Shown: positions 5,911-46,062 of the stretch, piece after piece
How the letters are laid out: the number at the start of each line of letters is the position of its first letter
Numbering within the stretch: position 1 is the first letter of the stretch
DNA from: a virus
Strand: one strand, 5' to 3'
Virus record (IMG/VR): IMGVR_UViG_3300034073_003340
Location: 356,634 to 420,633 of that record
Length of the DNA: 64,000 bases
Made by a program: the position numbers and the translations under genes
The notes under the pieces: generated by a model
The model's input: only the letters and a program-made list of their open reading frames with translations
The model's database searches: none
Told to the model about the DNA's origin: nothing

Positions 5911-7164
5911 TTACTCGTTAGCTGCCTTGGTATCAAATACTACCAAGGGCTCACACTTTCCTTCAATTACATCGGCGGTTACCCTGACCGTATGTGCGCC
6001 CTGTTCCTTTAGATCCGGAAGATCATATTGTACTCGAATAAGGCGTTTCTCAATAACAGACCTAAGACCTCTGGCTCCTGTCTTACGAGAAATAGCATCT
6101 TTTGCTACTGCGCGAAGAGCCTCCTCGTCGAACTCCAGAGATACTTCTTCGAGACTAAACATCTTCTGAAATTGCTTTACCAAGGAATTCTTGGGTTCAG
6201 TTAGAACCTGAACCAGTTGATCCTGATCCAACTCTTCAAGACTGGTGATAACGGGAAGTCGTCCCACGAGTTCAGGAATCAAACCAAATTTTGTTAGGTC
6301 CTCTGGTTCAACAGCTGATAGAACTTTGTTTGATTCGCTCTTTTCCTGTTCAGTCTGAACGTTGGCTCCAAAACCAATTGATCCCTTGTTTTTATTCTGT
6401 CGCTTGTTGATGATTTCGTCCAGACCCACAAATGCCCCACCAACAATGAACAGAATATTCTTGGTATTCACAATGGCCATTTCCGCATTAGGGTGTTTGC
6501 GATTGCCTGTGACTGGAACTCGAACTTCGCTTCCTTCGATGATCTTCAAAAGAGCTTGCTGAACTCCTTCACCCGAGACATCACGGGAGATGCTCGCACT
6601 GTCGCCCCTCTTGGCTTTTTTATCAACTTCGTCGAGATAAACGATGCCTCTTTCGGCCTTTGCTATATCATTGTCACAGACCTGGAGAAGGCGAGAAATG
6701 ATAGTTTCCACATCATCGCCCACATATCCAGATTCAGTCAAAGACGTGGCATCAGCAATAGTAAATGGAACGTCCAACAGCTTGGCGATGCTACGAGCCA
6801 TCAAAGTCTTACCAGAGCCAGTAGGACCAAGGAGTAGAATGTTGGATTTCTCCAGTTCCACGTCGTCAACCACAGGATTAGCAAGTCGCTTATAATGATT
6901 ATGGACCGCGACTGCCATCACCATTTTGGCATCATTTTGACCAATAACATACTGGTCAAGGAACTCTCGGATCTGTCGAGGGCTTGGAATGCTGCCATCT
7001 TTTAGAAGCTTGGCTTCAGCGTTGCTATCCTCTTTTAGAATATCTGCGCAAAGTTGAACACAGTCATTACAGATGAAAACATCTGGACCCGCGATCAACT
7101 TGGTTACCTGTTCTTGACGCTTACCGCAAAAAGAGCAGCTTAGATTTTTCTTATTCTCGCTCAT
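5911..7164 (-). CDS. clpX: ATP-dependent Clp protease ATP-binding subunit ClpX
   Basis: N-terminal C4 zinc finger (CSFCGK...CNDC), Walker A GPTGSGKT, and AAA+ sensor motifs. Length of 417 aa is typical of ClpX. Confidence 0.9.
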   Translation of the reverse strand: MSENKKNLSCSFCGKRQEQVTKLIAGPDVFICNDCVQLCADILKEDSNAEAKLLKDGSIPSPRQIREFLDQYVIGQNDAKMVMAVAVHNHYKRLANPVVDDVELEKSNILLLGPTGSGKTLMARSIAKLLDVPFTIADATSLTESGYVGDDVETIISRLLQVCDNDIAKAERGIVYLDEVDKKAKRGDSASISRDVSGEGVQQALLKIIEGSEVRVPVTGNRKHPNAEMAIVNTKNILFIVGGAFVGLDEIINKRQNKNKGSIGFGANVQTEQEKSESNKVLSAVEPEDLTKFGLIPELVGRLPVITSLEELDQDQLVQVLTEPKNSLVKQFQKMFSLEEVSLEFDEEALRAVAKDAISRKTGARGLRSVIEKRLIRVQYDLPDLKEQGAHTVRVTADVIEGKCEPLVVFDTKAANE

Positions 7165-8535: not shown

Positions 8536-8619
8536 GTTTTGCCTCTGAGATATCTGATAGTGATACGGACCGCAACCGCGGACTGTCTACTTATCACTAT
8601 CAGATATTATCAGGGTAGT

Positions 8620-22371: not shown

Positions 22372-22598
22372 AGGAAAGTTAGTTTAAACAGCAAAGCATG
22401 GTCAAGCTTTTCAAAACACCAAGTTACCACAAAATGAGGCTCGGGTGTTTTAACTAGTTTCCATCCCGCAGTCGTAACTCTACCTGTATTGTGGTCTTTC
22501 ATCCATTGTTTGAACACCGGGGTCGCCACTGGATTATTTCTTATTCCCCTGGTTACCGTTAGACTGTTGGCCGGCACCGTGACATGATACTTTTTCAT
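22368..22598 (-). CDS. FKLTWGG-family small protein (cluster 2 member)
   Basis: C-terminus KQWMKDHN...HALLFKLTFL. Confidence 0.6.
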   Translation of the reverse strand: MKKYHVTVPANSLTVTRGIRNNPVATPVFKQWMKDHNTGRVTTAGWKLVKTPEPHFVVTWCFEKLDHALLFKLTFL

Positions 22599-22858
22599 AG
22601 AAATGTCAACTTGAACATCGCCGCGTGGACCTGGTTGCTGAAGAAGATCTTGGTGGGAAGCTCTTTGATCAGGTTGTGACTAATGTTCATGATGATCCAG
22701 TGGTCACGAACTGGCGTGTATTGGTGTTGGTCAGGGTGGCGGAACTGTCGAGGCCCAACAACCCTTTCCAACCACTCTTCAGCTTCCTGGGTCAACTTTA
22801 CCGCATAGCCTGGCATCCATACACGATCATTGTCGCGATGGACGCTAATTGAAATCAC
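22595..22858 (-). CDS. FKLTWGG-family small protein (cluster 2 member)
   Basis: C-terminus EEWLERVVG...AAMFKLTFL. Confidence 0.6.
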   Translation of the reverse strand: MISISVHRDNDRVWMPGYAVKLTQEAEEWLERVVGPRQFRHPDQHQYTPVRDHWIIMNISHNLIKELPTKIFFSNQVHAAMFKLTFL

Positions 22859-23145
22859 GAGAACTTGGCCTCGAACTCCTGAGCTACCTCGATTCGATCC
22901 TTGGGGAAGAACACGGTTGTGATGTCGTGCTCGTCCGACGAACGCGAGGTCATGACCTCGATACCATGGCCCTCAATGAAGGCACGAGCCTCATCGCCGA
23001 TCACCCAATGAAAGGTGTCCGGCCACTTGTGATCCGTTTCCTTCTTCATATGAGCGAAGCCGACCATGCGTACGGGAATACACAGGGCCTGCTTCGCCCG
23101 TATGCGCTCAAAAGCGGACATGATCTCGGCGTGACGGTCGGTCAT
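22855..23145 (-). CDS. Hypothetical protein in a GC-rich cassette with the CCA gene
   Basis: 96-aa ORF with a 4-nt overlap to cca; local GC is clearly higher than the flanks (by eye). Confidence 0.45.
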   Translation of the reverse strand: MTDRHAEIMSAFERIRAKQALCIPVRMVGFAHMKKETDHKWPDTFHWVIGDEARAFIEGHGIEVMTSRSSDEHDITTVFFPKDRIEVAQEFEAKFS

Positions 23146-24278
23146 GCTTCGATCGCCAGCAGTTCTTCCTTGGTTCGCGTAAACCGACTGAATACCCAGG
23201 CATTCTCCAGCATCCGCAGCCGCTGACCCATGGCCGGGCCAGGCTTCATACCCAGTGCCAGCAGATCCTTACCCGTTACCGGGAAAGTGGGAACCTTGAA
23301 CGCCTCGGCATGACGTGCCAGCGAGGGCTCGCCTGCGATCTCCAGCATGGAAACCACATGATCCAGGGGGAACTTGTCGCGAGTCAGCATAACCTCAACC
23401 CGCTCTTCGGTCCAGTTCAGACCGCGATTGCGAATCAGGTTGCGCACCTTGGCTTCTTCGGCACTGCTCATCTTCCAAAACTTGAAGAAGTTCTCTTCAT
23501 CGGTGTTGGCGATCAGCGTCGACAGAGCAGCAACCGCATCATCCGACCGAGCCAGCTCAACGGGGTTGAACCGGAAAACACCCAGCGCACGATTGACGCC
23601 GGTCTTGAACATCGCGTCAACGATCCGAACCCGAGCCGGCATCTTGGGATCCAGCAGCTTGCTCATTTCCTGCCAAAAACGCTCCACACTGACAAGGTTC
23701 AGTTTGTCCAGAACTTCGGCATCGCTGAACAGATCCAGATCGTCCTGGCTCATCGTGCTGTCGAAACGAGCAGCAAAGCGGAAGTAGCGCAGAATACGCA
23801 GGTAATCTTCCTGGACTCGCAGTTCCGAAACACCAACAAAGCGCACAACCTTGTTCTTCAGATCCTCGCGACCACCAAAGTAGTCGTAAACCAGACCGTT
23901 GAAGTCCATGCTCATTGCGTTGATGGTCAGGTCGCGACGCTCAGCATCAATTTCGAAGCTGCGAGTAAACTCAACCTCGGCATGTCGACCGTCAGTCTCG
24001 ACATCCACGCGCAGGGTGGTGACCTCAAATGCTTCGCCGTCCACGACCAGCGTTGCCGTGCCGTGCTGGACACCGGTGGCAATGAAACCAAACTTGTTGG
24101 TGTTAGCAATAGCTTTCATTTCGTCCGGAGTAGCATCGGTGCAGAAGTCCACATCCTTGGGGACCACACCCAGCAGAGCGTCACGGACGCAACCACCAAC
24201 AAAGCGGATCTCGAAACCGGCAGAAGAAAATGCTTCTCCCAGCTTGCGCGTTTCCGGTGTCATCAGCTTGTCCAGCAC
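23142..24278 (-). CDS. cca: tRNA nucleotidyltransferase (CCA-adding enzyme) / poly(A) polymerase family
   Basis: Pol-beta head GGCVRDALLG..PKDVDF, RRDLTINA, and the neck ED..RILRYFRFAARF motif. Confidence 0.8.
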   Translation of the reverse strand: MLDKLMTPETRKLGEAFSSAGFEIRFVGGCVRDALLGVVPKDVDFCTDATPDEMKAIANTNKFGFIATGVQHGTATLVVDGEAFEVTTLRVDVETDGRHAEVEFTRSFEIDAERRDLTINAMSMDFNGLVYDYFGGREDLKNKVVRFVGVSELRVQEDYLRILRYFRFAARFDSTMSQDDLDLFSDAEVLDKLNLVSVERFWQEMSKLLDPKMPARVRIVDAMFKTGVNRALGVFRFNPVELARSDDAVAALSTLIANTDEENFFKFWKMSSAEEAKVRNLIRNRGLNWTEERVEVMLTRDKFPLDHVVSMLEIAGEPSLARHAEAFKVPTFPVTGKDLLALGMKPGPAMGQRLRMLENAWVFSRFTRTKEELLAIEA

Positions 24279-24315: not shown

Positions 24316-25044
24316 CTATTCGGGAGACGTCAACCTATTTGATTTTATTGTCAGCATTCTGGCTTTGAATTCTTCAGCAAGATCAGGGCGAAACAAAAAT
24401 ACCATAGCAAGCTGCCAAATACGCTGCTGTCTCCGCTCCTCAGACTTTTTGTTTCTCTCGGCATCGCGGATTTGCTTTGCTCCGGACAGCTTGCGATTTC
24501 GCTTGGTCCAGAGTTCGGGATTCTGTCGCGCTTTGAGAAAATCCTCAAAGGGTTCAGTTTGGCGATCACTGTTACATAGGGTACAAGCGAGAGCCAGATT
24601 ACTCAGCTTATCAGTGCCGCCATACATCTGAGGAATCTTATGATCCACCGTGGCCATTTGCTTTACCAGCATACCTTCCGGCGGACGCTGTTTTTTAACA
24701 CCCTCAACTGGTAGCCAGGTTTGACAATTACAAAATACGCAACGTCCATCCTGTTGGTTGAAGAGCTTGATGAGCTTTTTGCGCCTACTCATAGTGAATT
24801 TGGTATACCACCACTCCTTTTGATCGGGCGTTGGCCACTTTCGATTGACACCAGCTCGTATGACCTGACTATACGTCATATGATCAAGATGGCCAGCATG
24901 AATTTTATTTGTCTGGCTTACTGGGGATGCGATTGTAGATGTCTCGCATAACAAAGATGGGAAACATGATGAGTCGGACTGCTCCAACAACGAGTCGTTC
25001 TTGAATTCCTCGATTCTTTCCATGTTCCATTTTGTAATCTCCAT
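24316..25044 (-). CDS. HNH endonuclease
   Basis: CVFCNCQ...VDHKIPQMYGGTD...NLALACTLCN: an HNH core with flanking Cys pairs. Confidence 0.7.
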   Translation of the reverse strand: MEITKWNMERIEEFKNDSLLEQSDSSCFPSLLCETSTIASPVSQTNKIHAGHLDHMTYSQVIRAGVNRKWPTPDQKEWWYTKFTMSRRKKLIKLFNQQDGRCVFCNCQTWLPVEGVKKQRPPEGMLVKQMATVDHKIPQMYGGTDKLSNLALACTLCNSDRQTEPFEDFLKARQNPELWTKRNRKLSGAKQIRDAERNKKSEERRQQRIWQLAMVFLFRPDLAEEFKARMLTIKSNRLTSPE

Positions 25045-25307: not shown

Positions 25308-25968
25308 ACATTCGGTCTAGTTCATGTTTCTCAATATCATCTGCCCCCATAGAATCAAAATAATCGTCATCCTCTGAGTCTACTTGATGCCACTCTGCTT
25401 CATTGAAGTTCTTAAATTTGAAGTCCCGCTCAAGCAAAGCAACATAGAAGATATAATGTGGATCTCCCAGATCAGGAACATAGGTTATCTCAAGTGTGTA
25501 TATACCATAAGCCCCTAGGCTCTGTTTAAGCCTTTGTGTGAGATTTTTTAAATTTTCTGGAAATCTCACCTTGAGTTGTCCAGACCATCCCTTGCCAAAA
25601 ACCGCCTCGTCATCATTTAACCCAATATAGAAAATGGTGTCGATGTCATCGACAGTCATGTTTCTAAATTCCATATTTCGCGGACGGAAAAATATCTTTT
25701 CGTCCATGTCAAGGTGATTCAAAGGCACGTTATTGAGTGGCAATGGATTGGCATTAAGCCAGTTCTCAACCCCTTTTAAAGAATTGATGCTTTGGAGATT
25801 GTTTCTATGAATCTTATACTGATCAACAATCATTCGCAGACGGCGATAGGTCTCGGGTGATGCGGTTGACCACCGACGATCAGAAACAGCGTTATTGACT
25901 GAAAGAGCAAATTGTCTGAATTCAAACCATGAGCTGAATCTACGGTTATCCAAAACACTCCTGATCAT
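25255..25968 (-). CDS. Hypothetical protein with an acidic C-terminal tail
   Basis: 237 aa with a D/E-rich C-terminus (DDDAQYFDMGFDDGFE). Confidence 0.4.
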   Translation of the reverse strand: MIRSVLDNRRFSSWFEFRQFALSVNNAVSDRRWSTASPETYRRLRMIVDQYKIHRNNLQSINSLKGVENWLNANPLPLNNVPLNHLDMDEKIFFRPRNMEFRNMTVDDIDTIFYIGLNDDEAVFGKGWSGQLKVRFPENLKNLTQRLKQSLGAYGIYTLEITYVPDLGDPHYIFYVALLERDFKFKNFNEAEWHQVDSEDDDYFDSMGADDIEKHELDRMFDDDAQYFDMGFDDGFE

Positions 25969-27158
25969 AGAGCTTTAACCCTTGTCAACACTGTGCTCTT
26001 GTTACCCTTGAATTCATTATGGTCCTTGACCGTTCCGCGGATCTTTATGGTCTTGCCCACGTGGCTTTTGAGAGCCGGCTTGGTGGCAAACCACGTAAAG
26101 CGATTACCATGCCCATCGCGCATCTTATGGAGATAGCTGAATTCGAGGGTGCGAACTTCGTCCACTGTTACTTCGATCTCCATTTTCTGTCCCTTGACTC
26201 CCTGGAAAGTGGAGGAAGCCCCCTTGGGACGCATCCGGGCATAATAGCTACCAACGATAGAAGCCGCAATGCCAATGCTGCGAGGCTCGATAGCTTCAGC
26301 AAGTGCCACTACGCGAATATTGTGCTCATAGTCCGAGAGATCACCGTCGAGCTCGCTTGCCCAGTCGCGAGCCGCGATAGCAAGGTTACGAGCACCTTCG
26401 CTTACAATAGGCAACTGCTGGTGCATTCTTGCGAATACATCATCGGCAGTGCTTTTGCCGCCGGTTTCCTTGGCCTGCTTCTTACTCGTCCAGCCGCGAT
26501 CCAAGACACTTTCAGCGCAAAGCTGAAGGAACATCTCGGTACCAATCCAGCGATGATCGATCAGGCTGCTGCCGTCTTCGCCCTTGTTCCAGGCCATACG
26601 CTTGAGTTCACCCAAGCTCGCAATAAGCTCAGCCATCTTGGCCCACTTGTCAGCCTCACCGTGCCCCAAGAAATCCTTGAGGCACGAGCTACCAACCTGT
26701 CGAAATCCTTCAGCTTCGTTGAAGACCACAAACGTGTCGCGCCGACGACGCTTGTGACCACAGTGGTCGCAAACGGGTTCGCTGGTTCGGTATTCTTCGG
26801 GAAGTTCGCGCACATCAGTGGTGCGGACGATATTACCGGCTTCGTTGGCGTGGTCGATACGAGCCACGAACTCCCACCCAGCCAGCTTGGGCTCAGGGCA
26901 AGAAACAAATACTTCCATGATCTTCTGATTGAAGAACTTGGAATCCTTGGATTCTTCGAAGTGAAAACCCACAACGGTCATGAAGAGACGCTCTCCGGTG
27001 AGTTTTTGGGCCCGCTTACCAATACGGGTCATCTGGTCCTTGAACCATTCAAAACCTGCTGCCGGAATGTCGAACGTCTTGCCTTCTGCCATTGTTGATC
27101 TCCTCATCTGTTGCCCTGTTTCTACAATCAGGTGAGGAGATGTCAACCAGAATTTCAC
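25965..27158 (-). CDS. Hypothetical protein with a putative zinc-ribbon (CDHCGH...SSC)
   Basis: 397-aa ORF co-directional with its neighbours. The long antisense ORF 26019..27098 is judged spurious in this GC-rich stretch. Confidence 0.45.
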   Translation of the reverse strand: MKFWLTSPHLIVETGQQMRRSTMAEGKTFDIPAAGFEWFKDQMTRIGKRAQKLTGERLFMTVVGFHFEESKDSKFFNQKIMEVFVSCPEPKLAGWEFVARIDHANEAGNIVRTTDVRELPEEYRTSEPVCDHCGHKRRRRDTFVVFNEAEGFRQVGSSCLKDFLGHGEADKWAKMAELIASLGELKRMAWNKGEDGSSLIDHRWIGTEMFLQLCAESVLDRGWTSKKQAKETGGKSTADDVFARMHQQLPIVSEGARNLAIAARDWASELDGDLSDYEHNIRVVALAEAIEPRSIGIAASIVGSYYARMRPKGASSTFQGVKGQKMEIEVTVDEVRTLEFSYLHKMRDGHGNRFTWFATKPALKSHVGKTIKIRGTVKDHNEFKGNKSTVLTRVKAL

Positions 27159-27163
27159 TCAAG

Positions 27164-27193
27164 AAAATGGTCCCAGTTTCCCAGGACCATTTT
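27164..27193. terminator. Hairpin with conserved loop CAGTTTCCCA (10-bp stem AAAATGGTCC/GGACCATTTT)
   Basis: Seen directly; the same loop is present at 29096 and 54094. Confidence 0.55.
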
Positions 27194-27204
27194 CTATTCT
27201 AGAT

Positions 27205-27582
27205 TTATTCTGGTTCTTCGTCAGAGAAAGTATCAGCTTCCTCTTCGATTTCTACCTTATCTTCAGTGGCATCAGCAAAGTGCCAGCCAACAACGCTGCC
27301 ATCGCCTAGCGTGGCCTTATGCGCGGAAATCTTCACAACGCGCAGGATGTTATCATCTAGGTCGCGAACGCTCAGGGTCATTTCACCTGTTAGTAGATCA
27401 GCAATGTCTTTATCAACGAGAGCGCATACACCAGTGTCACCACCAGCATTGACTTCAAAACGCTTGGAGCCGCGCTGACGAACGATATGGCCTTCAGTTG
27501 GCCCCGATCCGATATTTGCCTGAACACGAAAATCCATACCTGGACCAGTGCCAAAATACTTCTTGTTAAGTGGTCGTCCCAT
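27205..27582 (-). CDS. Hypothetical protein
   Basis: 125-aa ORF with an acidic C-terminus. Confidence 0.4.
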   Translation of the reverse strand: MGRPLNKKYFGTGPGMDFRVQANIGSGPTEGHIVRQRGSKRFEVNAGGDTGVCALVDKDIADLLTGEMTLSVRDLDDNILRVVKISAHKATLGDGSVVGWHFADATEDKVEIEEEADTFSDEEPE

Positions 27583-27635
27583 AAAAATCTCTCCTAATAG
27601 AGTAGGGTGTTTAGACTATTTAGCGAGATTGGGAC

Positions 27636-28076
27636 TTACACGGAGAGTTTGAGAAGCAATACCCTTCTAGGGACTTCGCTTAGTGGCGAATCTATCATGT
27701 TGGCCACATGAGTGATCATATTCTGAAAATCAGAACATTTGAAGTCGCTGTTGATGATGAAATCTTCGCCACTTTGCCAAAGCTTGTTCCAAGACATAAT
27801 TCCGCCTTTGCTGAATTGACTGCCTTGTACACCAATGCCGTCTAGGTAAGTCAAAAAGGCAAAGACTATCTTTTTCTGACTTTCGTCAACAAATAAAGTT
27901 TCCAGATGGTAGCCCAAGCGGATACAAGAACGGGTCATTCTCCCCCGCTCATAAGGTGTCATGTTGTCAGGCTCGATTTCCTTGAGGTTGAGCGCTTTTT
28001 TATGGGCCAAGGAAACATTCCTGACCACCCGTAGATGCTTGACTATATCTTTGTAGAGATCAGTCCTGTCGCACAT
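27636..28076 (-). CDS. Hypothetical protein
   Basis: 146-aa ORF, abuts the NADAR gene. Confidence 0.4.
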   Translation of the reverse strand: MCDRTDLYKDIVKHLRVVRNVSLAHKKALNLKEIEPDNMTPYERGRMTRSCIRLGYHLETLFVDESQKKIVFAFLTYLDGIGVQGSQFSKGGIMSWNKLWQSGEDFIINSDFKCSDFQNMITHVANMIDSPLSEVPRRVLLLKLSV

Positions 28077-28654
28077 CAGAGGGCTGCGCTGGGCTTCAAC
28101 GAGTAGCCCTGTCGGGTCGTAGGAGCCATCGACTTGCGTAGAGTAATGATATCCCGGCGAACTTGTGTGATGATCTCACCCAGCCAGTTGGTTCCTTGCC
28201 AAGTGCTACGATCAAGAGCCCGAGGATCACTAGCATCCAAACCAATACCCCAAATTTTATCCCAGGGACTGGCTTCTACCAATGTGGTTCCATCAGTAGA
28301 TAGAAGCCACTCAAGAAATTCATCATTCTGTGTGAACTTGGCAAAGTTGGCACGATAGACAAACAGCTTGGCGTTCTTTTCCCAAGTTTCCTGATCGAAG
28401 TTCCTGACCGTCCGGCCTGTCGCCTTCTGTATCTTTGGGTTATCGGTCCCCATGATGATCTGAAGAGCGTCGTCATCGCCAAAGAGGATGGCTTTCTGCG
28501 CCATCATATATTGCTCGGCGGTATTGTAGACGACCCCGTCTACAGTGAAAAAGCTAGAGGCCCACTGACTGGCATAGCCACCATAGAAGAATGTGAACTT
28601 TTCAGTCATATCAGCACCATCCTGCGCGTTTGCCACCGGCATATGGGCGAGCAT
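28076..28654 (-). CDS. NADAR (YbiA/DUF1768) domain protein
   Basis: FTFFYGGYASQWASSFF...YNTAEQYMMAQKAILFGD...KATGRTVRNFDQETWE...ANFAKFTQN..L...LLSTDGTTLVEASPWDKIWGIG matches the NADAR consensus throughout. Confidence 0.8.
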   Translation of the reverse strand: MLAHMPVANAQDGADMTEKFTFFYGGYASQWASSFFTVDGVVYNTAEQYMMAQKAILFGDDDALQIIMGTDNPKIQKATGRTVRNFDQETWEKNAKLFVYRANFAKFTQNDEFLEWLLSTDGTTLVEASPWDKIWGIGLDASDPRALDRSTWQGTNWLGEIITQVRRDIITLRKSMAPTTRQGYSLKPSAAL

Positions 28655-29072
28655 ATCCCTGTATGATCATCAGTTGAGCCAGGCTCTCGCCATTAGAAAG
28701 ATAAACATCGGCGCCGACTCGTCCGCCGTATTTGTCCCACTTTAGGCCTTGGAGAGTGACCCGATTGCCGCTCAGCTTGAGCATACGAGTAGTAAAGAGC
28801 TTGGCTCCTGCCGCCGTCCGGCGTTCTTCATTACACTTGCCCCGCATCTCCGCGGTATCAATACCGCGAACCCGGACACCGATACGTCGTAGTTCCGGGG
28901 GAAGACCTGGCATATCAATGTAAAAGGTGTCACCGTCATAAACGCCAGTGACATTGTATTCATAGCGGGCTTGGGACAGTTTGGCGTCAGCAGTAGCTGA
29001 TCCAAAGAACGCGAAGGCCATAGCAGCCAAGATGGTGAACTTTTTCATACATGACCTTATATAGGCAAACAC
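28611..29072 (-). CDS. Secreted staphylococcal-nuclease (SNase/thermonuclease)-like nuclease
   Basis: Signal peptide, then VYDGDTFYID...VRVRGIDTAEM...GRVGADVY...ESLAQLMIIQGYARPY (the SNase fold pattern). Confidence 0.65.
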   Translation of the reverse strand: MFAYIRSCMKKFTILAAMAFAFFGSATADAKLSQARYEYNVTGVYDGDTFYIDMPGLPPELRRIGVRVRGIDTAEMRGKCNEERRTAAGAKLFTTRMLKLSGNRVTLQGLKWDKYGGRVGADVYLSNGESLAQLMIIQGYARPYAGGKRAGWC

Positions 29073-29095
29073 CTATAATGTCAACCAGTCATGGA

Positions 29096-29121
29096 AAAGG
29101 CCCCAGTTTCCCAGGGCCTTT
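29096..29121. terminator. Hairpin AAAGGCCC-CAGTTTCCCA-GGGCCTTT (conserved loop) downstream of the TelA-like gene
   Basis: Seen directly; followed on the minus strand by TTTTCC. Confidence 0.55.
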
Positions 29122-29128
29122 CCGGTGA

Positions 29129-30349
29129 TTATGCTCGGAGAGCAGCTTGGCGATTTGCCGCGCTGAGCAGCGTTTCCTTGAGCTTCTGTTCCGCACTCTG
29201 CAGGGCAGTTTCAGCGGCAGCGCGCTTGGCCTTGCCCTGTTCAGCAAGATCAATGCTGTCATTGATCGTCTGCATCAGCAAGTCGTTTGCCTGAACCGCT
29301 GCTTCGACATCAAAGATGCCACGTTCGATTTCAGTTCGAGCAACCTTGTTGCTCTGATTGAGTTGCTTGGCACTTGTCACCAACAGATCGTTGGTAAAAT
29401 CAGTCGCCGCCTTGGAAGCCTTGCCAGCTTCTTCAGCCCGCCATGCTGCGATGCTGACTGCCATCGTGCGCTTCCAAAGGGGAACCGACGTCAGCAGCTG
29501 AGTCTGGATCTTCTCTGCCAATCCCTTGTCGTTGGACTGAACGATGCGAATGCTCGGCAGTGCCTGGATCGTCACATTACGAGTGAGCAGCAGGTCCGCC
29601 CGCTTACGCTCCAGAGAATCACGAGCTTCAGTCATGTCTCGCACCGCCTGGGTGTCGTTCATGTCCTGCGTTTCGTTTGCCTTGGCCTGTAGTGCTGGGA
29701 TTTCCTTGGTGTTGACCTCATTCAAGAGATAATCGATAGCAGCAATCTGTTCATCGAGCGCATCGAGAAGTCCGAGGGTCGCTTCGTATTGCTTGTCCAA
29801 TGCCACAATATCCTTGAGCATCTGAACCCGGTGACCTTCGAGAATGTTGGCGCTAGCAATCAGCTGAGCTTCAACCGTCTTGTATTTGTCCAAGAACTTC
29901 TGGAGGACGCTCGCGCCACCGAATAGCTTTTTGAGGAAGCCGGGCTTTTTGCCAGTAGCCAGCTCGCCAAAGTCCAGGCCCTTCATTTCCCGGACCATTG
30001 CGTTCATCTGTTCACCCACCGGGCCAGTGTCCTTGGTGCGAACTCCCTGGAGCATCTGTTCCGATACCGCAGTGGTTGCCTTTTGAGCTTCAACGCCGAA
30101 CGTGATGATGGACTGGCTATCGCGCAGATTGATCTTGCTGGCCAGTTCACGGGCGCGTTCCACTGAAACCTTGGAGCCGGCTCGACCTACCTGGTCGTTC
30201 AGCGAAACGATTTCCTGTGAACCAATTTCAGGAACGATCAGTGCGTTCTCAGAAGTTGGGGTGGAGAGAAGTTCACCGGTAAGCGACGGGGTTTCCGTAG
30301 CCACGCCGATCTTAGTAGGATCAGATGCCATAATTTCAGATTCCTTCAT
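29129..30349 (-). CDS. TelA/KlaA-like toxic-anion-resistance family protein (tentative)
   Basis: About 400-aa all-helical acidic protein of TelA size, with an XpaC-like two-TM partner immediately upstream in the same orientation (as in yaaN-xpaC operons). The assignment rests on architecture and context, not a memorised motif. Confidence 0.4.
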   Translation of the reverse strand: MKESEIMASDPTKIGVATETPSLTGELLSTPTSENALIVPEIGSQEIVSLNDQVGRAGSKVSVERARELASKINLRDSQSIITFGVEAQKATTAVSEQMLQGVRTKDTGPVGEQMNAMVREMKGLDFGELATGKKPGFLKKLFGGASVLQKFLDKYKTVEAQLIASANILEGHRVQMLKDIVALDKQYEATLGLLDALDEQIAAIDYLLNEVNTKEIPALQAKANETQDMNDTQAVRDMTEARDSLERKRADLLLTRNVTIQALPSIRIVQSNDKGLAEKIQTQLLTSVPLWKRTMAVSIAAWRAEEAGKASKAATDFTNDLLVTSAKQLNQSNKVARTEIERGIFDVEAAVQANDLLMQTINDSIDLAEQGKAKRAAAETALQSAEQKLKETLLSAANRQAALRA

Positions 30350-30998
30350 TTTGGAGACGGCCCTTCATAACCGTAAGATTGACGTCAAAATCCATGACAT
30401 CGTTGGCCAAGAGTTTATCAAGCAACTCCTGGAACTTCTGCTCGATTGTATCGAGAAGCTCGTCGAATTGGGCCATTTGCTTTTGGGCTTCGATGCTGCG
30501 AGCACCGGTGCGACTCAGTTGAGCATACCCCTTGACCAGATTGATCGTCTCATCAAGGTAGCTGTTGAGCCATGACTGTGCGAGTCTGACATCCTTGGGA
30601 TCCTGTCGGAAGTCCTCAACGATCTTAAAGCCCAGGGCAACAATATGTTTGATCCTACGAGTCACGTTTGGCGCTCGGATCTGAAGAGATTCGTGTTGGA
30701 TCCGCTCAAGCTTTTCAGTGCCAACGCGGATAGCTTCCACTACCTCGGCAGTGGTAACACCACTGTTTTGTGTGTTGGCAATGCCGTCAATTTTGGCATA
30801 GAGATCTTTGATCTCTTGGCTCGTCACCGGACGGCGACCTGGCCACCAGTACCAAATACCTAGACCAGTAGCAGCGGCAAGCGGAGTCGCCAGCGCGAGA
30901 TCTGCTACAAAGCCTAGTGGAAAAGCTGCCATACCTCCGGCAAATACACATGCGGCTCCACTTAGGGCAGCAACCTTGCTAATCGTGCTATTTTTCAT
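30336..30998 (-). CDS. XpaC-like membrane protein (two N-terminal TM helices plus a helical domain), tentative
   Basis: Hydrophobic VAALSGAACVFAGGMAAFPLGFVADLALATPLAAATGLGIWYWW followed by a soluble helical region; 14-nt overlap with the TelA-like gene. Confidence 0.35.
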   Translation of the reverse strand: MKNSTISKVAALSGAACVFAGGMAAFPLGFVADLALATPLAAATGLGIWYWWPGRRPVTSQEIKDLYAKIDGIANTQNSGVTTAEVVEAIRVGTEKLERIQHESLQIRAPNVTRRIKHIVALGFKIVEDFRQDPKDVRLAQSWLNSYLDETINLVKGYAQLSRTGARSIEAQKQMAQFDELLDTIEQKFQELLDKLLANDVMDFDVNLTVMKGRLQNEGI

Positions 30999-31069
30999 CG
31001 AAGTCCTCTTTGAATTTAGACTCAGTTATACTCCTAAATAGCAACGTGTCTACTTTTCTTTGGAAGAAA

Positions 31070-31099
31070 GGAAAGGGTGGCAATTTTGCCACCCTTTCC
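31070..31099. terminator. Rho-independent terminator after the flotillin gene
   Basis: GGAAAGGGTGGCAA-tt-TTGCCACCCTTTCC perfect palindrome with a T-rich tail on the minus strand. Confidence 0.6.
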
Positions 31100-31118
31100 C
31101 GTAGAAGCCCTGTGAGGC

Positions 31119-32852
31119 TCACTGGTCGTCAGTGTGAATCCCAGCAAGTCGCTGTAGCTCTTCCTTGTCAGTAGGGGCGAGAGGTTCGTCCTTGACCCGA
31201 CGAGCATTAGACTTTGCGGGAGCCTTTGCCGCAACAGCTTCACCGACCGGAATAACCTCGGCCATGCTGCTCAGCATACCGTTCATACCCTGGCTTAGAT
31301 CAAGCCCCAGTTCCTTGGCTAGCGTGTCAACTACTGGAACCTGTAGTCGATAATTCAGCAGCGCATCAGTCATCTGAGTAGGGAGATTAGGACTGCCGTT
31401 TCCCACGGTTTCTCCCTCAACAGATCCAGATGCCTGACCGCCCATACCGCCGTTCATATGAACTACACGGAAGCTATCAATCTTCTCGATGGGCTTGCCC
31501 ATCTGCTCAAGAATAGCAGGCAGCTTTTCAATGAGCTTGAGTCGAATCTGCAGGGCGGCCTGTTCGGGCGACATTGTGTTTGCCGCTTCGTTGAGGGCGC
31601 GCTGACCTTCCGACTCAACTTCATAACGCTTGGCTTCAGCCTCGATGAGGCGTTCCTTGGCCTTGGCCGACGCATCTGCTGCTGCTAGTTCAGCTTCAGC
31701 ACGAATACGAACTGCTGCCGCATCTTCCTGCGCGCGACCCTCGGCCGCAATCACAGCCACTCGCTGGTCTCGTTCTGCCCTGGCCGTTGCCTCAACAGTC
31801 TTAACCTCTTCGCTGGCCCGAACCGCTTCAGCCCTGGCTGCGTCTGCTGCCGCGCGAGCTTCTGATTCTTCCTGAGACTTGGCAGCGACCTTGATTCGCT
31901 GATCCTGACTTGCCAGCTCAAGATCTCGGGCAGCTTCGGCCTGCGCAATCTTAATCTTGCGCTCACTTTCAACCCTGGCTTCTTCAGTGGCCTGCTCGGC
32001 ATGAATTACAGCAAGATCAGTTTCACGCTGGCGATCAGCACGGGTTCGCGCCAGTTCAGCTTCCTGTGCTGCTCGACGGGTTTCCACTTCACGCTGCTGT
32101 TCAAGCGTAGCAAATTCATCCTGCTGGCGAATTTCCAGAGAACGCTTGTTGGCCTCAAAGTTGCGCTGCTCAATAGCAACACGATTTTCCTGCTCGATAT
32201 CGTTTCGCTCTTTCTTGCGCGTTTCCGTGACCGACGTCAGCTTGGCAAGACCTTCAGCGTCGAAAGCGTTGTTGGGATTGAAGTGTTCCACAGAAGTCTG
32301 ATCAAGACCAGTCAGCGACACCGATTCAAGTTCAAGACCATTGGCCTTGAGATCCTCGGCCGCCGTGGTCTTAACCGTCTTCACGAACTCAGCCCGCTGG
32401 GTGTGGAGGTCCTGCATGTCCATTCCAGCAGCAACCGCGCGAAGGACGTCAACGAACTTACCTTCAATAAGTTCACTGAGCTGCTGGGGGTTCATAGTCC
32501 GGCGACCCAGTGTCTGTGCTGCCGCTGCGATGCTGCCATCGTCAGGTGAAACCCGAACATAGAACTCAGCCTTGACATCAACGCGCAGACGGTCCTTGGT
32601 GATAAGCGAGTCCTTGGCCTTTCGCTCAACAGTCAGACGCAGGGTCTGCATATTGATAGGAATGGTTTCATGAAACACCGGCAGCACAATTGCGCCGCCA
32701 TCCTTGACGACTTTCTGTCCGCCCATACCAGTTCGGACGAATGCTTGTTCCTTTGAGGCTCGCTGGTAGAGCCTGGTCATGAAGATGACCATTGTGAGAA
32801 TAACGACGATTGCCGCTACCACAATGCCACCAATGAATGCTAGATTTTCCAA
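31119..32852 (-). CDS. Flotillin-like SPFH/band-7 domain protein (YqiK/FloA-type) with a long Ala/Glu-rich coiled coil
   Basis: N-terminal TM segment, an SPFH domain (QAFVRTGMGGQKVV..., DRLRVDVKAEFYVRV) and an extended EA-repeat coiled coil. Confidence 0.8.
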   Translation of the reverse strand: MENLAFIGGIVVAAIVVILTMVIFMTRLYQRASKEQAFVRTGMGGQKVVKDGGAIVLPVFHETIPINMQTLRLTVERKAKDSLITKDRLRVDVKAEFYVRVSPDDGSIAAAAQTLGRRTMNPQQLSELIEGKFVDVLRAVAAGMDMQDLHTQRAEFVKTVKTTAAEDLKANGLELESVSLTGLDQTSVEHFNPNNAFDAEGLAKLTSVTETRKKERNDIEQENRVAIEQRNFEANKRSLEIRQQDEFATLEQQREVETRRAAQEAELARTRADRQRETDLAVIHAEQATEEARVESERKIKIAQAEAARDLELASQDQRIKVAAKSQEESEARAAADAARAEAVRASEEVKTVEATARAERDQRVAVIAAEGRAQEDAAAVRIRAEAELAAADASAKAKERLIEAEAKRYEVESEGQRALNEAANTMSPEQAALQIRLKLIEKLPAILEQMGKPIEKIDSFRVVHMNGGMGGQASGSVEGETVGNGSPNLPTQMTDALLNYRLQVPVVDTLAKELGLDLSQGMNGMLSSMAEVIPVGEAVAAKAPAKSNARRVKDEPLAPTDKEELQRLAGIHTDDQ

Positions 32853-32865
32853 AAAATTTCTCCTG

Positions 32866-33534
32866 TTAGATCTTACGGACTATAAAGGCAATTTCACGAT
32901 CCTTGTGTGGCCCTAGTAACACCACCTGTGAACCACTAGCAATATGTTCGTTGCTTTCTGAACAGACCACAAGATTATGGTCAGTCCCAAAATTATCAGT
33001 GAATCTAGCAATACCAAAATCCACTGGACCTATAGGTCCAGCAGTCAGTATTCCGCTTGATCCGATCAAGCTTTCAACCTTGATCGCGCTTGTTTCATCT
33101 TTTGGAAGCAACGGAGCAATGGAGGCAGACAGTGACCTGACGATTGGCAAGGTGCAGGCTAAAACCACTGGGCCTACTAGAAGTGCTGGCATCAAGCCTG
33201 AAGCTATGCCATTATAGATCCATTGTGCGCTATATCCCAAGATACTGTAGATACCAGAGAAAAGAATAATAAAAACAGTGCTTGGAACATGGCCAGGGTT
33301 GACCCATAGAAAAATTGAAGAATGACCAGCTTCGAGATAATCCGGGACACCATTCCCGTTAGCGTCCAGGGTAAAATCAATTTCAGCGTCTACCTGGAAT
33401 AGGTCATGACCTATACCAAAGATGATTGAAATCATTCCCAGGATGAGCAAGGCTATAACAATACAGCCGGCGATTAGAAAGGCAGTGTTTTCTGCTGCGG
33501 TGATGAAATTCAGCATGTCCATGCTGGACTTCAT
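32866..33534 (-). CDS. NfeD/YqiJ-like membrane protein (partner of the SPFH protein)
   Basis: Multi-TM N-terminal half with a C-terminal soluble beta domain (VVLLGPHKDREIAFIVRKI), directly upstream of the flotillin gene as in yqiJ-yqiK. Confidence 0.5.
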   Translation of the reverse strand: MKSSMDMLNFITAAENTAFLIAGCIVIALLILGMISIIFGIGHDLFQVDAEIDFTLDANGNGVPDYLEAGHSSIFLWVNPGHVPSTVFIILFSGIYSILGYSAQWIYNGIASGLMPALLVGPVVLACTLPIVRSLSASIAPLLPKDETSAIKVESLIGSSGILTAGPIGPVDFGIARFTDNFGTDHNLVVCSESNEHIASGSQVVLLGPHKDREIAFIVRKI

Positions 33535-33968: not shown

Positions 33969-34069
33969 TTAAGGTTTAGCAACTAAAAATGATTGCGCAA
34001 CTCTTTTTGCGACGAACTGTGTGATTATTCACAATCAGTGAATCAAATATTATTAACAATAAAGTAACG

Positions 34070-34423
34070 TTAAAATATTGCGTTGAGATGTTTTTCTATC
34101 TCACAGACCCTATAGGGTTTAGTTAAAATGGGCCATTGCTGAAATACTGTAGGTAGCTCTTGTGAATCCATGCCACTACATACCACAACAGGAATATTGA
34201 GCGCCGCTAGCATATTGGCTGCTCCGATGCTGGACTCGTCCCTGAGACCGACATCAAGAAACACACAAGAGATTTCATCCCCTTGCTCTTTGATGATAGT
34301 TTCAGCTTCAGAGTTGGTTGTAGCAGGTCCTAAAAGAGACAGCTCGTTGTCTTCACAAATGTCTTCCCATAAGAGATGAAGCAAGATTTGATCCTCAACG
34401 AGCAGAACACGGCCTTTAGCCAT
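34070..34423 (-). CDS. Standalone response-regulator receiver (CheY-like) domain protein
   Basis: RVLLVEDQ...(D)...FLDVGL...K: phospho-acceptor Asp layout in a 117-aa protein with no output domain. Confidence 0.6.
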   Translation of the reverse strand: MAKGRVLLVEDQILLHLLWEDICEDNELSLLGPATTNSEAETIIKEQGDEISCVFLDVGLRDESSIGAANMLAALNIPVVVCSGMDSQELPTVFQQWPILTKPYRVCEIEKHLNAIF

Positions 34424-35388: not shown

Positions 35389-35951
35389 TATTACCTCAAC
35401 TGGTTTCTTGCTAGAAAACGATTACTAGCTGGTGTAACCAGGCTGAATCAATATTTTTGAAGGGTTTTGCGACGATCCGAAATAGACCTGCGTATCTATC
35501 ATCAGTAGAGGAAAAACGGCCCGTTCTGTTGTTACGCCGGGACCATGCGCCACCTAGGGAGTTGATCCCCTAGGGATTGTTGAGGCATAGGAATCTACCG
35601 TAGCTTTTTCCTAACCTCGCTACCCTTAGGCAGCGAGCGCCTCGACAACATCGTTGTCGTTGACAGTTACGTCGTTGATCTTTTCAGAACAGATGTTCCC
35701 AGGGAATCACCCCTCGTCATCGCTTCACTGGTTTCCCAGATCGTCTCTCAACCGTTCGCTTCCACGTCGATCCTAGTTCAGGCCCATCAGTTACAACGCC
35801 CACAGCGTCCGTGGTCTATATCCTGTCAATTCAGGACCGCGTTGTAAGTGGTGGACCTGCCGGGTACCGCCCCCGGGTCCGCTAGTCACTAATAAGTTTC
35901 GGTCATCAATAACTTTTTCAATATAGTAGATAAGGATCCATATGTCAAGCA
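35389..35951. other. About 560-bp ORF-free, GC-richer, stem-loop-dense segment; candidate structured RNA
   Basis: No ORF of 60 aa or more. Hairpins include CCTAGGG-agttgatc-CCCTAGG, CTCGCT-acccttaggc-AGCGAG, GACAAC-atc-GTTGTC and GGACC..GGG-taccgcc-CCCGGGTCC. Confidence 0.3.
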
Positions 35952-36227
35952 TTAACCTACAAAAACATTAGGTGAACCAGTGGCTACTTTGCTCTTACAC
36001 ATAACCGGATCACCTTTTCGTCCCTGCTGCCGACCGTTAGTAAAAACAGTGCTAGAGCCCCTGGCTAGCTTGCTGGTGTGATCTTTATGAAAAGCCCACA
36101 TATCACCTTGTCTATGCGCTGGTTTGCCATTTATAAAAACATCAGGCGAGCCTTGTAGATTTGGTCGCGGCTTTGCGTCGCCGTGCCCGGTACACTTATC
36201 ACCCAAGCGAGCCGCTGGCTTACCCAC
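35952..36227 (-). CDS. PAAR-repeat protein (T4 gp5.4-like spike-tip)
   Basis: GDKCTGHG...GSPDVFINGKPAHRQGD...GSSTVFTNG...GSPNVFVG: three PAAR-type repeats in 91 aa. Confidence 0.7.
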   Translation of the reverse strand: MGKPAARLGDKCTGHGDAKPRPNLQGSPDVFINGKPAHRQGDMWAFHKDHTSKLARGSSTVFTNGRQQGRKGDPVMCKSKVATGSPNVFVG

Positions 36228-44394: not shown

Positions 44395-46062
44395 TTAGCG
44401 CTCTGAGACCTTCTTTGTGATCACCTTTGGTGAGGTTTTCTTATTGGAGCGGGCATCGTTATCAAATTCCTCAAGAGAACCATATTCAAATTCAGCTTGT
44501 TTGATTATTTCACCATCAAGTTTGGGATCTCCAAATAGTTTTGCGCAAACTGCTTTGATGACCTGATTGATGTGGGACTGTGGGTTTCTCTTGATGGTTG
44601 CCCTCACGACTCTCAGCGCATGGGCTATCTGTCCTACCGTAAGCTTATAGCCTTTCATCATGCGTTCATTGACTTCTTCATCTTGGGTCTCGGCATGAAT
44701 AGCTTCAAAAAAGCCCTTAGACAGCTCTTCTAGGCGTGCTCTGGTTTCGTGGACTGTAGGTGTAGAGGAAACCGGAGAGGCCCCGTGACGGACTCCTGCG
44801 AGTCTCTGAGCTTCCATGATTTGCTGTTGGAAGAATACTTCCTCGGTAGTCTCATCAACAATTTCTTCAACAGTTTCAGAATTAGCATCTTCATAGAACT
44901 GACGATACTCACCGATGGGCAAGACGTCGATGCCAAGAACATAGGCACCTTCTGACAATGATACGGGGATGGTTCCTGCGGATACTTGGGCAGCAACAGC
45001 GCGGGCCGAGCCATAATCAGCAAAACCTTCTTGGACTAGAATCGTTTCAGTCCCAGCGGTTGCCCAGCTTGGATTCACAGCCGAACCAATGTTCTCCATG
45101 ATCTGCGTGTGGACGACGACCACAAAATTATTGGCTTCCATTACTGCTTCCTCCTCTGATAGTTCTTCTTCAATGCCGGCCTCACAAACAGGGAGGTCCA
45201 AATTATCATCAAACAGATCAACATCAGGTCTGTTATTTTCCTGAATAGTATCTTCATAGAACTGGTCCTCCACATCGGTAAGGAGGGCATCAGTCTCCAT
45301 GATATATTTCAAAGCACGAGCACGAAATTCATCTTCAGACAATAGACCGAAATCGTGCATATAGGGTGTTCCCTGATAGTGCTTATAGCCCAGACTCAAC
45401 ACGGTGTTGACATCAGCACCCTCGCCTAGACCACCCCATTCAAGACATTCCTGTAGGTCTCCACGGTTCAAGCCTTCAGCTATTTCACTTAGACCTTCTG
45501 CTAGGCTTTCTGAGACTTTTCGAGCCACCATGATTGGGCTTTTGATGTTTTTGCCCAATAAGCCGCGCCTTTTGAAATCAGCATATGTTTCTTGGCGAGC
45601 CAACATCGCATGACTTTTAGAAGCACTAAAAGCAATGACCTGAAAATGCTCCATGTCAAATTCAGTACAGCCGCCATACATCGTTGTTGGCTTAAAGGTT
45701 ACGCTCTTGAAAGCTTTGATGGCTTCATTTTTGTTAGAGTAACCCAACATGACTTTGTCTTCATCAAACTTGGATCCATCAACAGTCATTTGGTGCATGA
45801 CGTATACTTTGGCATCCTTCTTTGGATTCTTCCTGACATAACAATCCAAATGCTCACCATCTGGACTGTGTGTTCCTTTGATATAACCATAGTGGGCCGG
45901 TACCTTGACTGCCCATTCCTCACCAGTCTTTTTGTTTTTGCCTCTTCTGAATCCGTCGGCAGGAACTTCAATGCTAATATCCAGTCCTTCGAAGTTCATA
46001 TGGCGGTGAAGCTTGGCTTCATTAAGGCTTCTAATAAAGTCCATTACCAGAGTATCCTCCAT
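44395..46062 (-). CDS. Hypothetical protein
   Basis: 555-aa ORF, acidic central region. Confidence 0.45.
   Translation of the reverse strand: MEDTLVMDFIRSLNEAKLHRHMNFEGLDISIEVPADGFRRGKNKKTGEEWAVKVPAHYGYIKGTHSPDGEHLDCYVRKNPKKDAKVYVMHQMTVDGSKFDEDKVMLGYSNKNEAIKAFKSVTFKPTTMYGGCTEFDMEHFQVIAFSASKSHAMLARQETYADFKRRGLLGKNIKSPIMVARKVSESLAEGLSEIAEGLNRGDLQECLEWGGLGEGADVNTVLSLGYKHYQGTPYMHDFGLLSEDEFRARALKYIMETDALLTDVEDQFYEDTIQENNRPDVDLFDDNLDLPVCEAGIEEELSEEEAVMEANNFVVVVHTQIMENIGSAVNPSWATAGTETILVQEGFADYGSARAVAAQVSAGTIPVSLSEGAYVLGIDVLPIGEYRQFYEDANSETVEEIVDETTEEVFFQQQIMEAQRLAGVRHGASPVSSTPTVHETRARLEELSKGFFEAIHAETQDEEVNERMMKGYKLTVGQIAHALRVVRATIKRNPQSHINQVIKAVCAKLFGDPKLDGEIIKQAEFEYGSLEEFDNDARSNKKTSPKVITKKVSER

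Follow-up and report, generated by a model that had tools for sequence, protein, structure and literature searches.

What is a run of membrane-associated genes of bacterial type doing in the genome of a very large phage, and why is it richer in G and C than the DNA around it? The question is raised by a 64,000-nucleotide stretch of viral DNA (IMG/VR virus record IMGVR_UViG_3300034073_003340, positions 356,634 to 420,633 of that record), which is referred to here as the window. According to the listing of open reading frames (ORFs), positions 25965-33534 of the window are filled by nine ORFs and, as the original prediction had stated, all nine lie on the minus strand. That prediction, made from the sequence alone, had interpreted this block as a single, horizontally acquired accessory island. 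Gene identities, gene order, conservation, regulatory elements, composition and catalytic residues, as they can be read from the sequence, lead to another interpretation: the block probably consists of nested, long-resident auxiliary genes and a membrane-upkeep cassette in a clade of jumbo phages of about 435-480 kb, which probably infect Alphaproteobacteria. The oldest, clade-wide layer would be a four-gene cassette that joins the bacterial operons nfeD(yqiJ)-flotillin(yqiK) and xpaC-telA and comprises the following features:

32866-33534, minus strand: NfeD/YqiJ-type inner-membrane protein, 222 amino acids (aa), first gene of the flotillin unit
31119-32852, minus strand: flotillin/YqiK-type SPFH protein, 577 aa (Pfam Flot and Band_7)
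31061-31100, minus strand: intrinsic-terminator-like hairpin, a 14-bp GC-rich stem and then a U-rich tail, directly after the flotillin stop codon
31025-31052, minus strand: sigma-70-like promoter candidate for xpaC-telA (TAGACA, 16 nt spacer, TATAAC)
30336-30998, minus strand: XpaC-family membrane protein, 220 aa (Pfam Halogen_Hydrol, PF10112)
29129-30349, minus strand: TelA/YaaN-family protein, 406 aa, soluble and helical (Pfam TelA, PF05816)

All families proposed beforehand for the block (YqiJ/NfeD, flotillin, XpaC, TelA, SNase and NADAR) passed Pfam profile searches. In NfeD the whole YqiJ_N profile is covered (6.3e-14, 52.6 bits, cut-off 23), the C-terminal OB fold is matched by YqiJ_OB at residues 155-207 with 19.1 bits, which is under the cut-off of 25.4, and a hydropathy scan, the method used for all membrane segments reported here, gives three to four hydrophobic segments. 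The flotillin gene follows after 13 nt, and its product, which is rich in Ala, Glu and Arg, contains Band_7 at residues 35-183 (8.6e-19, 68.7 bits, cut-off 23.6) and Flot at residues 391-517 (5.3e-34, 117.4 bits, cut-off 27) behind a hydrophobic N-terminal anchor at residues 1-30 (hydropathy scan only, maximum Kyte-Doolittle value 2.99). A PDB sequence search with the flotillin gave no match. XpaC matches Halogen_Hydrol almost completely (1.6e-27, 97.1 bits, cut-off 29.8, profile positions 11-190 of 191) and has an N-terminal hydrophobic segment at about residues 9-36. The xpaC gene overlaps telA by 14 nt. TelA is covered by its Pfam profile at positions 2-331 of 332 (2.5e-86, 290.2 bits, cut-off 30) as well as by phrog_5890 (4e-36), and the scan detected no transmembrane segment. 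Its AlphaFold2 (AF2) model is a long helical hairpin bundle with a mean predicted local distance difference test (pLDDT) score of 63.6, and the sole match of a PDB sequence search (0.19) is spurious.

How long these genes have been resident was assessed in relatives. Five IMG/VR contigs with a relative of the flotillin were available, one of which (L002, about 99% identical) represents essentially the same phage, while the other four (L003 to L006), which include genomes of 462 and 465 kb, were compared by tblastn. In these four the whole neighbourhood is found in the same order with 26-93% aa identity, or 26-84% for the block itself: the gene for the beta subunit of ribonucleotide reductase (RNR), the PAAR gene (detected in L003 and L005), the receiver gene, DUF4326, NfeD, flotillin, XpaC, TelA, SNase, NADAR, a 146-aa ORF (not detected in L003), a 125-aa ORF, the phrog_2319 gene, HNH and the CCA enzyme. 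At greater distance, gp491-494 of the Sinorhizobium phage Phosso (PV764938, 469 kb) are NfeD-flotillin-XpaC-TelA in the same order with 31-50% aa identity, although that record annotates only an 'SPFH domain-containing protein' and a 'toxic anion resistance protein'. Phosso also resembles the window in its terminator-promoter junction and, upstream, in the PAAR gene, a DUF7217-like gene and an alphaproteobacterial-type transfer-messenger RNA (tmRNA), but it has no adjoining SNase, NADAR or phrog_2319 gene and carries convergent giant structural-type genes instead. The 480-kb contig L014 is Phosso-like with the four-gene core only, and L015 and L016 (flotillin identity 53-59%) carry the four genes plus the SNase gene, without NADAR. 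Across all relatives the NfeD identity is 31-57%. Moreover, at least 33 metagenomic contigs, many of them of 0.1-0.48 Mb, appear to carry both flotillin and TelA, where entries of equal size in the two match lists were assumed to be the same contig. From oldest to youngest, the layers suggested by this distribution are the four-gene cassette, the SNase gene, gained in a sub-lineage, and NADAR and the genes behind it, which are restricted to the window's sub-clade. Neither a variable presence in close relatives nor a composition unshared by orthologues, as expected for a recently transferred island, was found. The single horizontally acquired island of the original prediction is thus not borne out, since the block is syntenic in L003 to L006 and its core is present in Phosso and L014; it fails further on the monophyly of the phage flotillins, the different phyletic depth of the modules and a composition offset that is common to the orthologues, the first and last of which are described below.

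Some of these contigs show features of their own. In L015 (10495-10920) and L016 (10526-10909) an ORF of 127-141 aa without a Pfam match lies between xpaC and telA, and in both a class-I aminoacyl-tRNA synthetase gene is located downstream of the SNase gene. One ENA contig of 958,096 bp (hits P0039, P0139 and P0273) has flotillin, TelA and the phrog_2319 gene; it is about twice the 470-480 kb of the clade and may be a concatemer or a duplicated assembly and not a phage of about 1 Mb.

Between its two halves, the cassette contains a junction that is read here as a candidate terminator (31100-31061) followed by a candidate sigma-70-like promoter (31052-31025) for xpaC-telA. The segment 30999-31118 folds with z=-4.4, and none of 200 shuffled sequences folds as well. 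Equivalent hairpins are present in L003 to L006 and Phosso, with 12-15-bp GC-rich stems of differing sequence and U-rich tails, and the z-scores over these phages and the window range from -2.7 to -4.8. In the same six phages GTAGAC is invariant (6/6), and in each of them a TAnnnn hexamer lies 16 nt downstream of TAGAC(A/T). As a general promoter motif of the phage, GTAGACA was rejected, because the window shows no enrichment of it (9 copies over the two strands versus about 7 expected). The sole other intergenic copy in the window, at 8590 on the minus strand (intergenic region 8536-8619), stands ahead of the palindromic stretch GATAGTGATAAGTAGACAGTCCGCGGTTGCGGTCCGTATCACTATC and may be another regulatory site.

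The membrane genes had been predicted to be of bacterial origin, and this is supported. The closest named bacterial flotillins belong to Sphingomonadales (52-55% identity), and the nearest bacterial TelA proteins to Alpha- and Gammaproteobacteria (39-47%). A protein with 100% identity to the window TelA is encoded on a JGI contig of 435,856 bp. About 65 phage-like metagenomic flotillin variants were found, and the phage-like flotillins including that of Phosso form one clade apart from the nearest bacterial group in a neighbour-joining tree without support values. Among the 80 closest bacterial telA loci, xpaC is directly upstream of telA on the same strand in 62, and a YqiK-type flotillin, YqiJ, SNase or NADAR was found in none within up to 10 kb of flank; the nearest Sphingomonadales flotillin loci consist of yqiJ-yqiK alone. 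Therefore, the four-gene order is a juxtaposition of two bacterial operons in the phage lineage. In one alphaproteobacterial metagenome-assembled genome, xpaC-telA is followed by a different SPFH type, Band_7_1. TelA is also encoded by unrelated large phages, namely 270-kb Staphylococcus phages and a 636-kb uncultured phage, but Pfam searches of the telA neighbourhoods of the 636-kb phage and of a 273-kb Staphylococcus phage revealed no XpaC or SPFH gene, so that the four-gene cassette is not a general jumbo-phage feature.

The second part of the question concerns composition. That the block is GC-richer than its surroundings, as had been predicted, holds for the block overall (windowed GC 0.512 versus 0.447 +/- 0.004, maximum 0.457, in 7570-bp windows outside; z=16), with 0.530 in the sub-span 28076-32852, but the excess is not uniform. 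For each gene, the observed GC content at third codon positions (GC3) was compared with that expected from its own residues and the background codon usage of the window. The GC3 excess amounts to z=6.7 for TelA, 6.5 for the phrog_2319 gene (its longest ORF, 397 aa) and 4.7 for flotillin, which carry most of it, followed by NADAR (3.0), XpaC (2.4), SNase (2.3) and the 146-aa ORF (2.2), whereas NfeD (0.0, GC 0.445) and the 125-aa ORF (-0.4) are at background. The GC excess of the block is thus patchy and largely synonymous, and it is unexplained by amino-acid composition. Favoured codons are AAG, CAG, CGC, ATC, TTC, AAC and CAC; AGA and ATA are avoided.

An excess of this kind, found in GC3, with codons typical of GC-rich bacteria and with GC-rich Proteobacteria as the source of the nearest non-phage flotillin and TelA homologues, could be taken for the un-ameliorated signature of a recent donor. 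The relatives argue against this. The background GC of their loci is 0.49-0.56, each with its own value, and still flotillin, XpaC, TelA, SNase, NADAR, phrog_2319 and the CCA enzyme are the GC3 standouts common to every relative; in L005, for instance, TelA reaches a GC3 of 0.86 versus about 0.56-0.63 in its neighbours. Gene by gene, the GC3 values of the window and of each relative are correlated, with rho 0.57-0.78. At 4-fold sites of conserved residues, 0.33-0.41 are identical versus 0.24-0.31 expected if they were independent, and Phosso is at or below expectation. Since the 4-fold sites are nearly saturated and the GC3 offset persists gene for gene, the offset appears to be maintained and not a leftover of a recent donor. 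It may be maintained either by selection on codon usage or by a local bias. This enrichment resembles the codon usage of GC-rich Proteobacteria, and tuning to the tRNAs of the host is a reasonable hypothesis.

A second and stronger GC3-rich patch was observed outside the block, at 22595-24278 on the minus strand, where a CCA-adding tRNA nucleotidyltransferase is encoded (GC 0.558, GC3 0.65, z=8.6); two small ORFs upstream of it have z=3.5 and 6.1. In every relative, too, the GC3 of the CCA gene is very high, with values of up to 0.86.

The genes that follow the cassette are:

28611-29048, minus strand: staphylococcal-nuclease-like (SNase) endonuclease, predicted to be exported, 145 aa from the ATG at 29048 (longest ORF starts at 29072)
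28076-28609, minus strand: NADAR-domain hydrolase of YbiA type, 177 aa from M16 (longest ORF starts at 28654)
27636-28076, minus strand: clade-restricted ORF, 146 aa, 35-42% identity in L004 to L006
27205-27582, minus strand: clade-restricted ORF, 125 aa, 36-55% identity in L003 to L006
25965-27092, minus strand: phrog_2319 protein, 375 aa from M23 (longest ORF 397 aa, to 27158; phrog_2319 1e-60)

Three start codons probably need trimming, to 27092 for the 397-aa gene, to 28609 for NADAR and to 29048 for SNase. The SNase gene follows telA in L003 to L006, L015 and L016. Its product matches Pfam SNase (PF00565; 3.8e-6, 27.7 bits, gathering cut-off 21) at profile positions 2-78 of 107 and phrog_452 'endonuclease' (5e-14); a PDB sequence search gave no match. 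D21, R35, D40, T41, E43 and R87 of nuclease A have their counterparts in the motifs DGDT, VRVRGIDTAE and DKYGGR, where the register of R35 was set by hand. The N-terminus, MKKFTILAAMAFAFFGSATADA ahead of K, has n-, h- and c-regions and an AxA site as judged by eye, and it looks like a Sec signal peptide.

The NADAR gene likely starts at M16 (28609), 1 nt past the SNase stop codon and with AGGA upstream. The protein matches Pfam NADAR (PF08719; 2.6e-46, 158.3 bits, cut-off 35.1), phrog_1017 (7e-47) and PADLOC PDC-M42C (1e-39). The catalytic residues, whose presence the original prediction had asked to be checked, were found by alignment to the P. nicotianae NADAR (8bau): E47, K54, K77, R81, W91, E127, D132 and W135 (192-aa numbering) are intact and align in order with E43, K50, K75, R79, W89, E125, D130 and W133. 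In the P. nicotianae enzyme E43 and K50 are the catalytic Glu and Lys, and E125 is the acidic residue of the last strand (PMC11543638). This last-strand residue is Glu in the YbiA type, Asp in the DarT1-linked type and His in T4 AdfN (PMC11125620), and the Glu at E127 assigns the window NADAR to the YbiA type. A DarT1-associated antitoxin (DarG1, BC4488 type) was rejected on the basis of Glu instead of Asp and of the neighbours, which are SNase and an ORF without a family match; membership of the AdfN/gp30.3 family was rejected on the basis of Glu instead of His and of best phage matches elsewhere, namely YbiA-like proteins of Xanthomonas and Pseudomonas phages (49-55%). Related NADARs are present in 718 phage records, often labelled 'GTP cyclohydrolase II'. 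Every phage NADAR tested so far reverses guanine ADP-ribosylation, and the NADARs of Bas32 and Bas60, which are of non-T4 types, neutralise DarT1 (PMC11257639). An anti-DarT role for the window NADAR is plausible, an idea that has already been published for phage NADARs (PMC11257639).

For the 146-aa ORF and the 125-aa ORF no Pfam, PHROG or PADLOC match was found. The phrog_2319 protein has no Pfam match, and phrog_2319 is a family without an assigned function; Cys108, Cys111 and Cys137 are invariant, and the C-terminal part of its confident model (pLDDT 89.7) is an OB fold, with SSB, PriB, RPA and the RecG wedge as matches, so that it is probably a nucleic-acid binder of Zn/OB-fold type. Its structural relatives are uncharacterised proteins of many phages. 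It is phage-native, belongs to a widespread phage family unrelated to the membrane module, and is no bacterial cargo.

The likely host range is indicated by an RNA gene upstream of the block:

35587-35952, minus strand: tmRNA of the alphaproteobacterial permuted (two-piece) type (Rfam RF01849 76.6 bits, GA 50; RF04321 89.3 bits)

It sits between a small ORF and the PAAR gene in the window, where it was missed by ARAGORN, and a tmRNA is found at the equivalent place in L003 to L006, L014 and Phosso, with ANDN...LAA tags in L003 and L014 (ARAGORN). Because a tmRNA of this type accompanies the block in the window and all relatives, including Phosso with its host Sinorhizobium, the phage clade most likely infects Alphaproteobacteria.

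Taken as nested, long-resident layers around a membrane-upkeep cassette, the block could work as follows, where we infer the timing of expression and all physiological roles. The conserved terminator and sigma-70-like promoter would make the two halves of the cassette separate transcription units, and host RNA polymerase would express the cassette early in infection. Flotillin and NfeD would assemble SPFH scaffolds at the inner membrane, on its cytoplasmic side; the linkage of nfeD with an SPFH gene in one operon is conserved in bacteria, whose flotillins gather in discrete foci of the membrane (PMC10434171), and in B. subtilis an SPFH protein links PspA to the membrane (PMC8581546). XpaC and TelA would modulate the arrangement of phospholipid domains and the tolerance of envelope stress. 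In E. faecium, both the binding of daptomycin and the placement of anionic phospholipid microdomains are influenced by xpaC and telA together, and the xpaC phenotype requires an intact telA (PMC6811118). Jointly, the four proteins would keep the membrane of the host ordered, sealed and energised while a very large phage completes its infection cycle. The SNase, added later beside telA in a sub-lineage, would degrade periplasmic or extracellular DNA, and the YbiA-type NADAR, added in the window's sub-clade, would strip ADP-ribose from guanine in DNA. The GC-richness would reflect a maintained, gene-specific preference for G/C-ending codons.

Several points weigh against this interpretation. E. 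coli mutants in SPFH genes, including yqiK, have mild phenotypes (PMC10434171), and a fold search with TelA returned generic helical bundles only, which offer no mechanistic handle. The xpaC-telA promoter candidate is a consensus-type match, and its motif is unrepeated elsewhere in the window. The flotillin tree carries no support values. The idea of host-preferred codons assumes a GC-rich alphaproteobacterial host; moreover, ClpX and RNR are cellular-type genes without a GC3 excess.

The block could instead serve chiefly in counter-defence, with NADAR acting against DarT1 marks and with flotillin/NfeD and XpaC/TelA buffering the membrane against depolarising or perforating abortive-infection effectors. 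The intact catalytic residues of NADAR and its PADLOC match, PDC-M42C being a candidate-defence component, are in line with such a function, as are the in vivo neutralisation of DarT1 by independently acquired phage NADARs (PMC11257639), the recurrence of TelA in the unrelated large phages and the ties of TelA/XpaC and SPFH proteins to tolerance of membrane-active agents (PMC6811118; PMC8581546). However, the window NADAR is of the YbiA type with Glu, and activity in vitro is no guarantee of protection in vivo (PMC11125620). NADAR is furthermore absent from deeper relatives that keep the membrane cassette, which argues against one functional unit, and no PADLOC model matches NfeD, flotillin, XpaC or TelA, which leaves the earlier suggestion of a defence association of TelA and SPFH genes unsupported. 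Counter-defence as the chief function is therefore regarded as rather unlikely.

A role in competition or release is considered improbable. Membrane proteins and a periplasmic nuclease might exclude superinfecting phages or DNA, or the nuclease might clear host DNA at lysis for the dispersal of virions, and indeed the SNase retains its catalytic residues, begins with a signal-peptide-like segment, stays beside telA in several sub-lineages and accompanies three membrane-anchored proteins among the four of the cassette. The SNase is missing, however, from the Phosso branch, which keeps the cassette, and superinfection-exclusion proteins are not known to be related to the cassette families.

Finally, a single accessory island recently transferred from a GC-rich bacterium is very improbable, because the compositional and homology signals that favour it stand against synteny in four relatives, a core shared with Phosso and the 480-kb contig, monophyletic phage flotillins, an identity of only 39-55% to the nearest bacterium, GC3 offsets of the same genes in every relative whatever the background, NfeD and the 125-aa ORF at background GC, a phage-native 397-aa gene and modules of different phyletic depth.

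Going beyond membrane upkeep by long-resident genes, flotillin/NfeD and XpaC/TelA could form a dedicated virus-encoded organiser of host inner-membrane domains, in a phage of about 450 kb that might need the cassette for its own cycle; this extension is tentative and at present doubtful. Such an organiser might build or stabilise a place in the membrane where genome entry, assembly or timed lysis occurs, or it might shield the membrane from abortive-infection effectors. If this were true, the maintained use of G/C-ending codons in the cassette and the CCA enzyme would mark genes tuned to the tRNA pool of the host.

The run of minus-strand genes extends from 22368 to 43144, past the block on either side, so that co-directionality is not peculiar to the block and does not delimit an island. 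Long plus-strand ORFs within the GC-rich genes (for example 26019-27098) were rejected as shadow ORFs, the opposing minus-strand genes having strong homologues and confident folds. The window also encodes both subunits of RNR (alpha and beta), type II topoisomerase subunits, a DnaB-like helicase, ClpX, a four-PAS-domain protein, a receiver-only response regulator, a PAAR protein and the CCA-adding enzyme. Its RNR alpha is about 60% identical to that of 350-kb jumbo phages of the Rak2/GAP32 type, and a megablast search of the block against 50,697 phage records gave no match; the phage is uncultured, and no close sequenced relative of it is among those records. Individual neighbours were observed as follows:

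34070-34423, minus strand: receiver-only response regulator, adjoining the cassette
52273-53943, plus strand: four-PAS-domain protein
44395-46062, minus strand: 555-aa protein with N-terminal InPase (inorganic pyrophosphatase) domain, host-like, at background GC
24316-25044, minus strand: HNH endonuclease gene
5911-7164, minus strand: ClpX-type AAA+ unfoldase with C4 zinc finger, host-like, at background GC

The receiver and four-PAS-domain proteins are of signalling type, and in L014 (616-1933) a PAS-HWE histidine kinase adjoins the receiver gene. The HNH gene stands between conserved neighbours but is itself far less conserved, with 34-39% identity in the relatives versus 75-84% for the adjoining CCA enzyme, and it may be a mobile element. 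Beside the DUF4326 gene a tRNA-Thr(GGT) is located in L004 (8742-8814), L005 (8692-8766), L006 (8752-8825) and L016 (6530-6604); it is uninformative on the codon bias, and no tRNA was detected at the equivalent position of the window, the 100-nt gap between the receiver and DUF4326 genes (33969-34069).

All protein families of the block were already known, as were phage TelA (phrog_5890), phage SPFH proteins and phage NADARs, and the anti-DarT1 role of phage NADARs has been published; the window NADAR adds one more independent phage acquisition to this counter-defence theme. In full-text literature searches no description of the four-gene cassette, of the terminator-promoter junction or of a stable gene-specific GC3 offset was found. 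Little is known on how jumbo phages handle the membrane of the host cell. The cassette is kept in every relative examined, and Phosso can be cultivated on Sinorhizobium meliloti, so that the poorly defined cellular roles of bacterial flotillins and TelA/XpaC become open to study in a tractable system. The GC data further advise caution, as locally high GC in a phage genome can be a property that particular genes stably maintain, and not a mark of recent transfer.

Compared with bacterial nfeD-flotillin operons (E. coli yqiJ-yqiK; B. subtilis yuaF-floT), the phage pair is alike in its domains (YqiJ_N and a weak YqiJ_OB, Band_7 and Flot), in the order with nfeD upstream, in the tight spacing and in the N-terminal membrane anchor, and the nearest bacterial loci, those of Sphingomonadales, contain exactly the same pair. 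It differs in being encoded by a jumbo phage, in forming a separate clade with at most 55% identity to any named bacterium and, with respect to the bacterial loci examined, in being followed by xpaC-telA. The second pair resembles the bacterial xpaC-telA (yaaN) operon of B. subtilis, Listeria and E. faecium in its full-length domains and in xpaC directly upstream on the same strand. Unlike in that operon, it lies behind a flotillin operon, has a conserved promoter candidate of its own and is followed by SNase, and the phage XpaC has 220 aa, in contrast to about 290-300 aa at alphaproteobacterial xpaC-telA loci. With the staphylococcal nuclease family and the phrog_452 endonucleases, the phage SNase shares a domain with Ca-binding and catalytic residues; it departs from them in its short domain match (78 of 107 profile positions), weak sequence similarity, a predicted signal peptide and a position beside telA in a jumbo phage. 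With the phage NADARs (T4 AdfN/gp30.3, NADAR-Bas32 and NADAR-Bas60) and the YbiA family, the window NADAR has in common the fold, the Glu and Lys of SxEQYxxxxK and the acidic residue of the last strand, and it is a stand-alone gene like the NADARs of the 718 phage records; its last-strand Glu distinguishes it from AdfN with His and from the DarT1-linked antitoxins with Asp.

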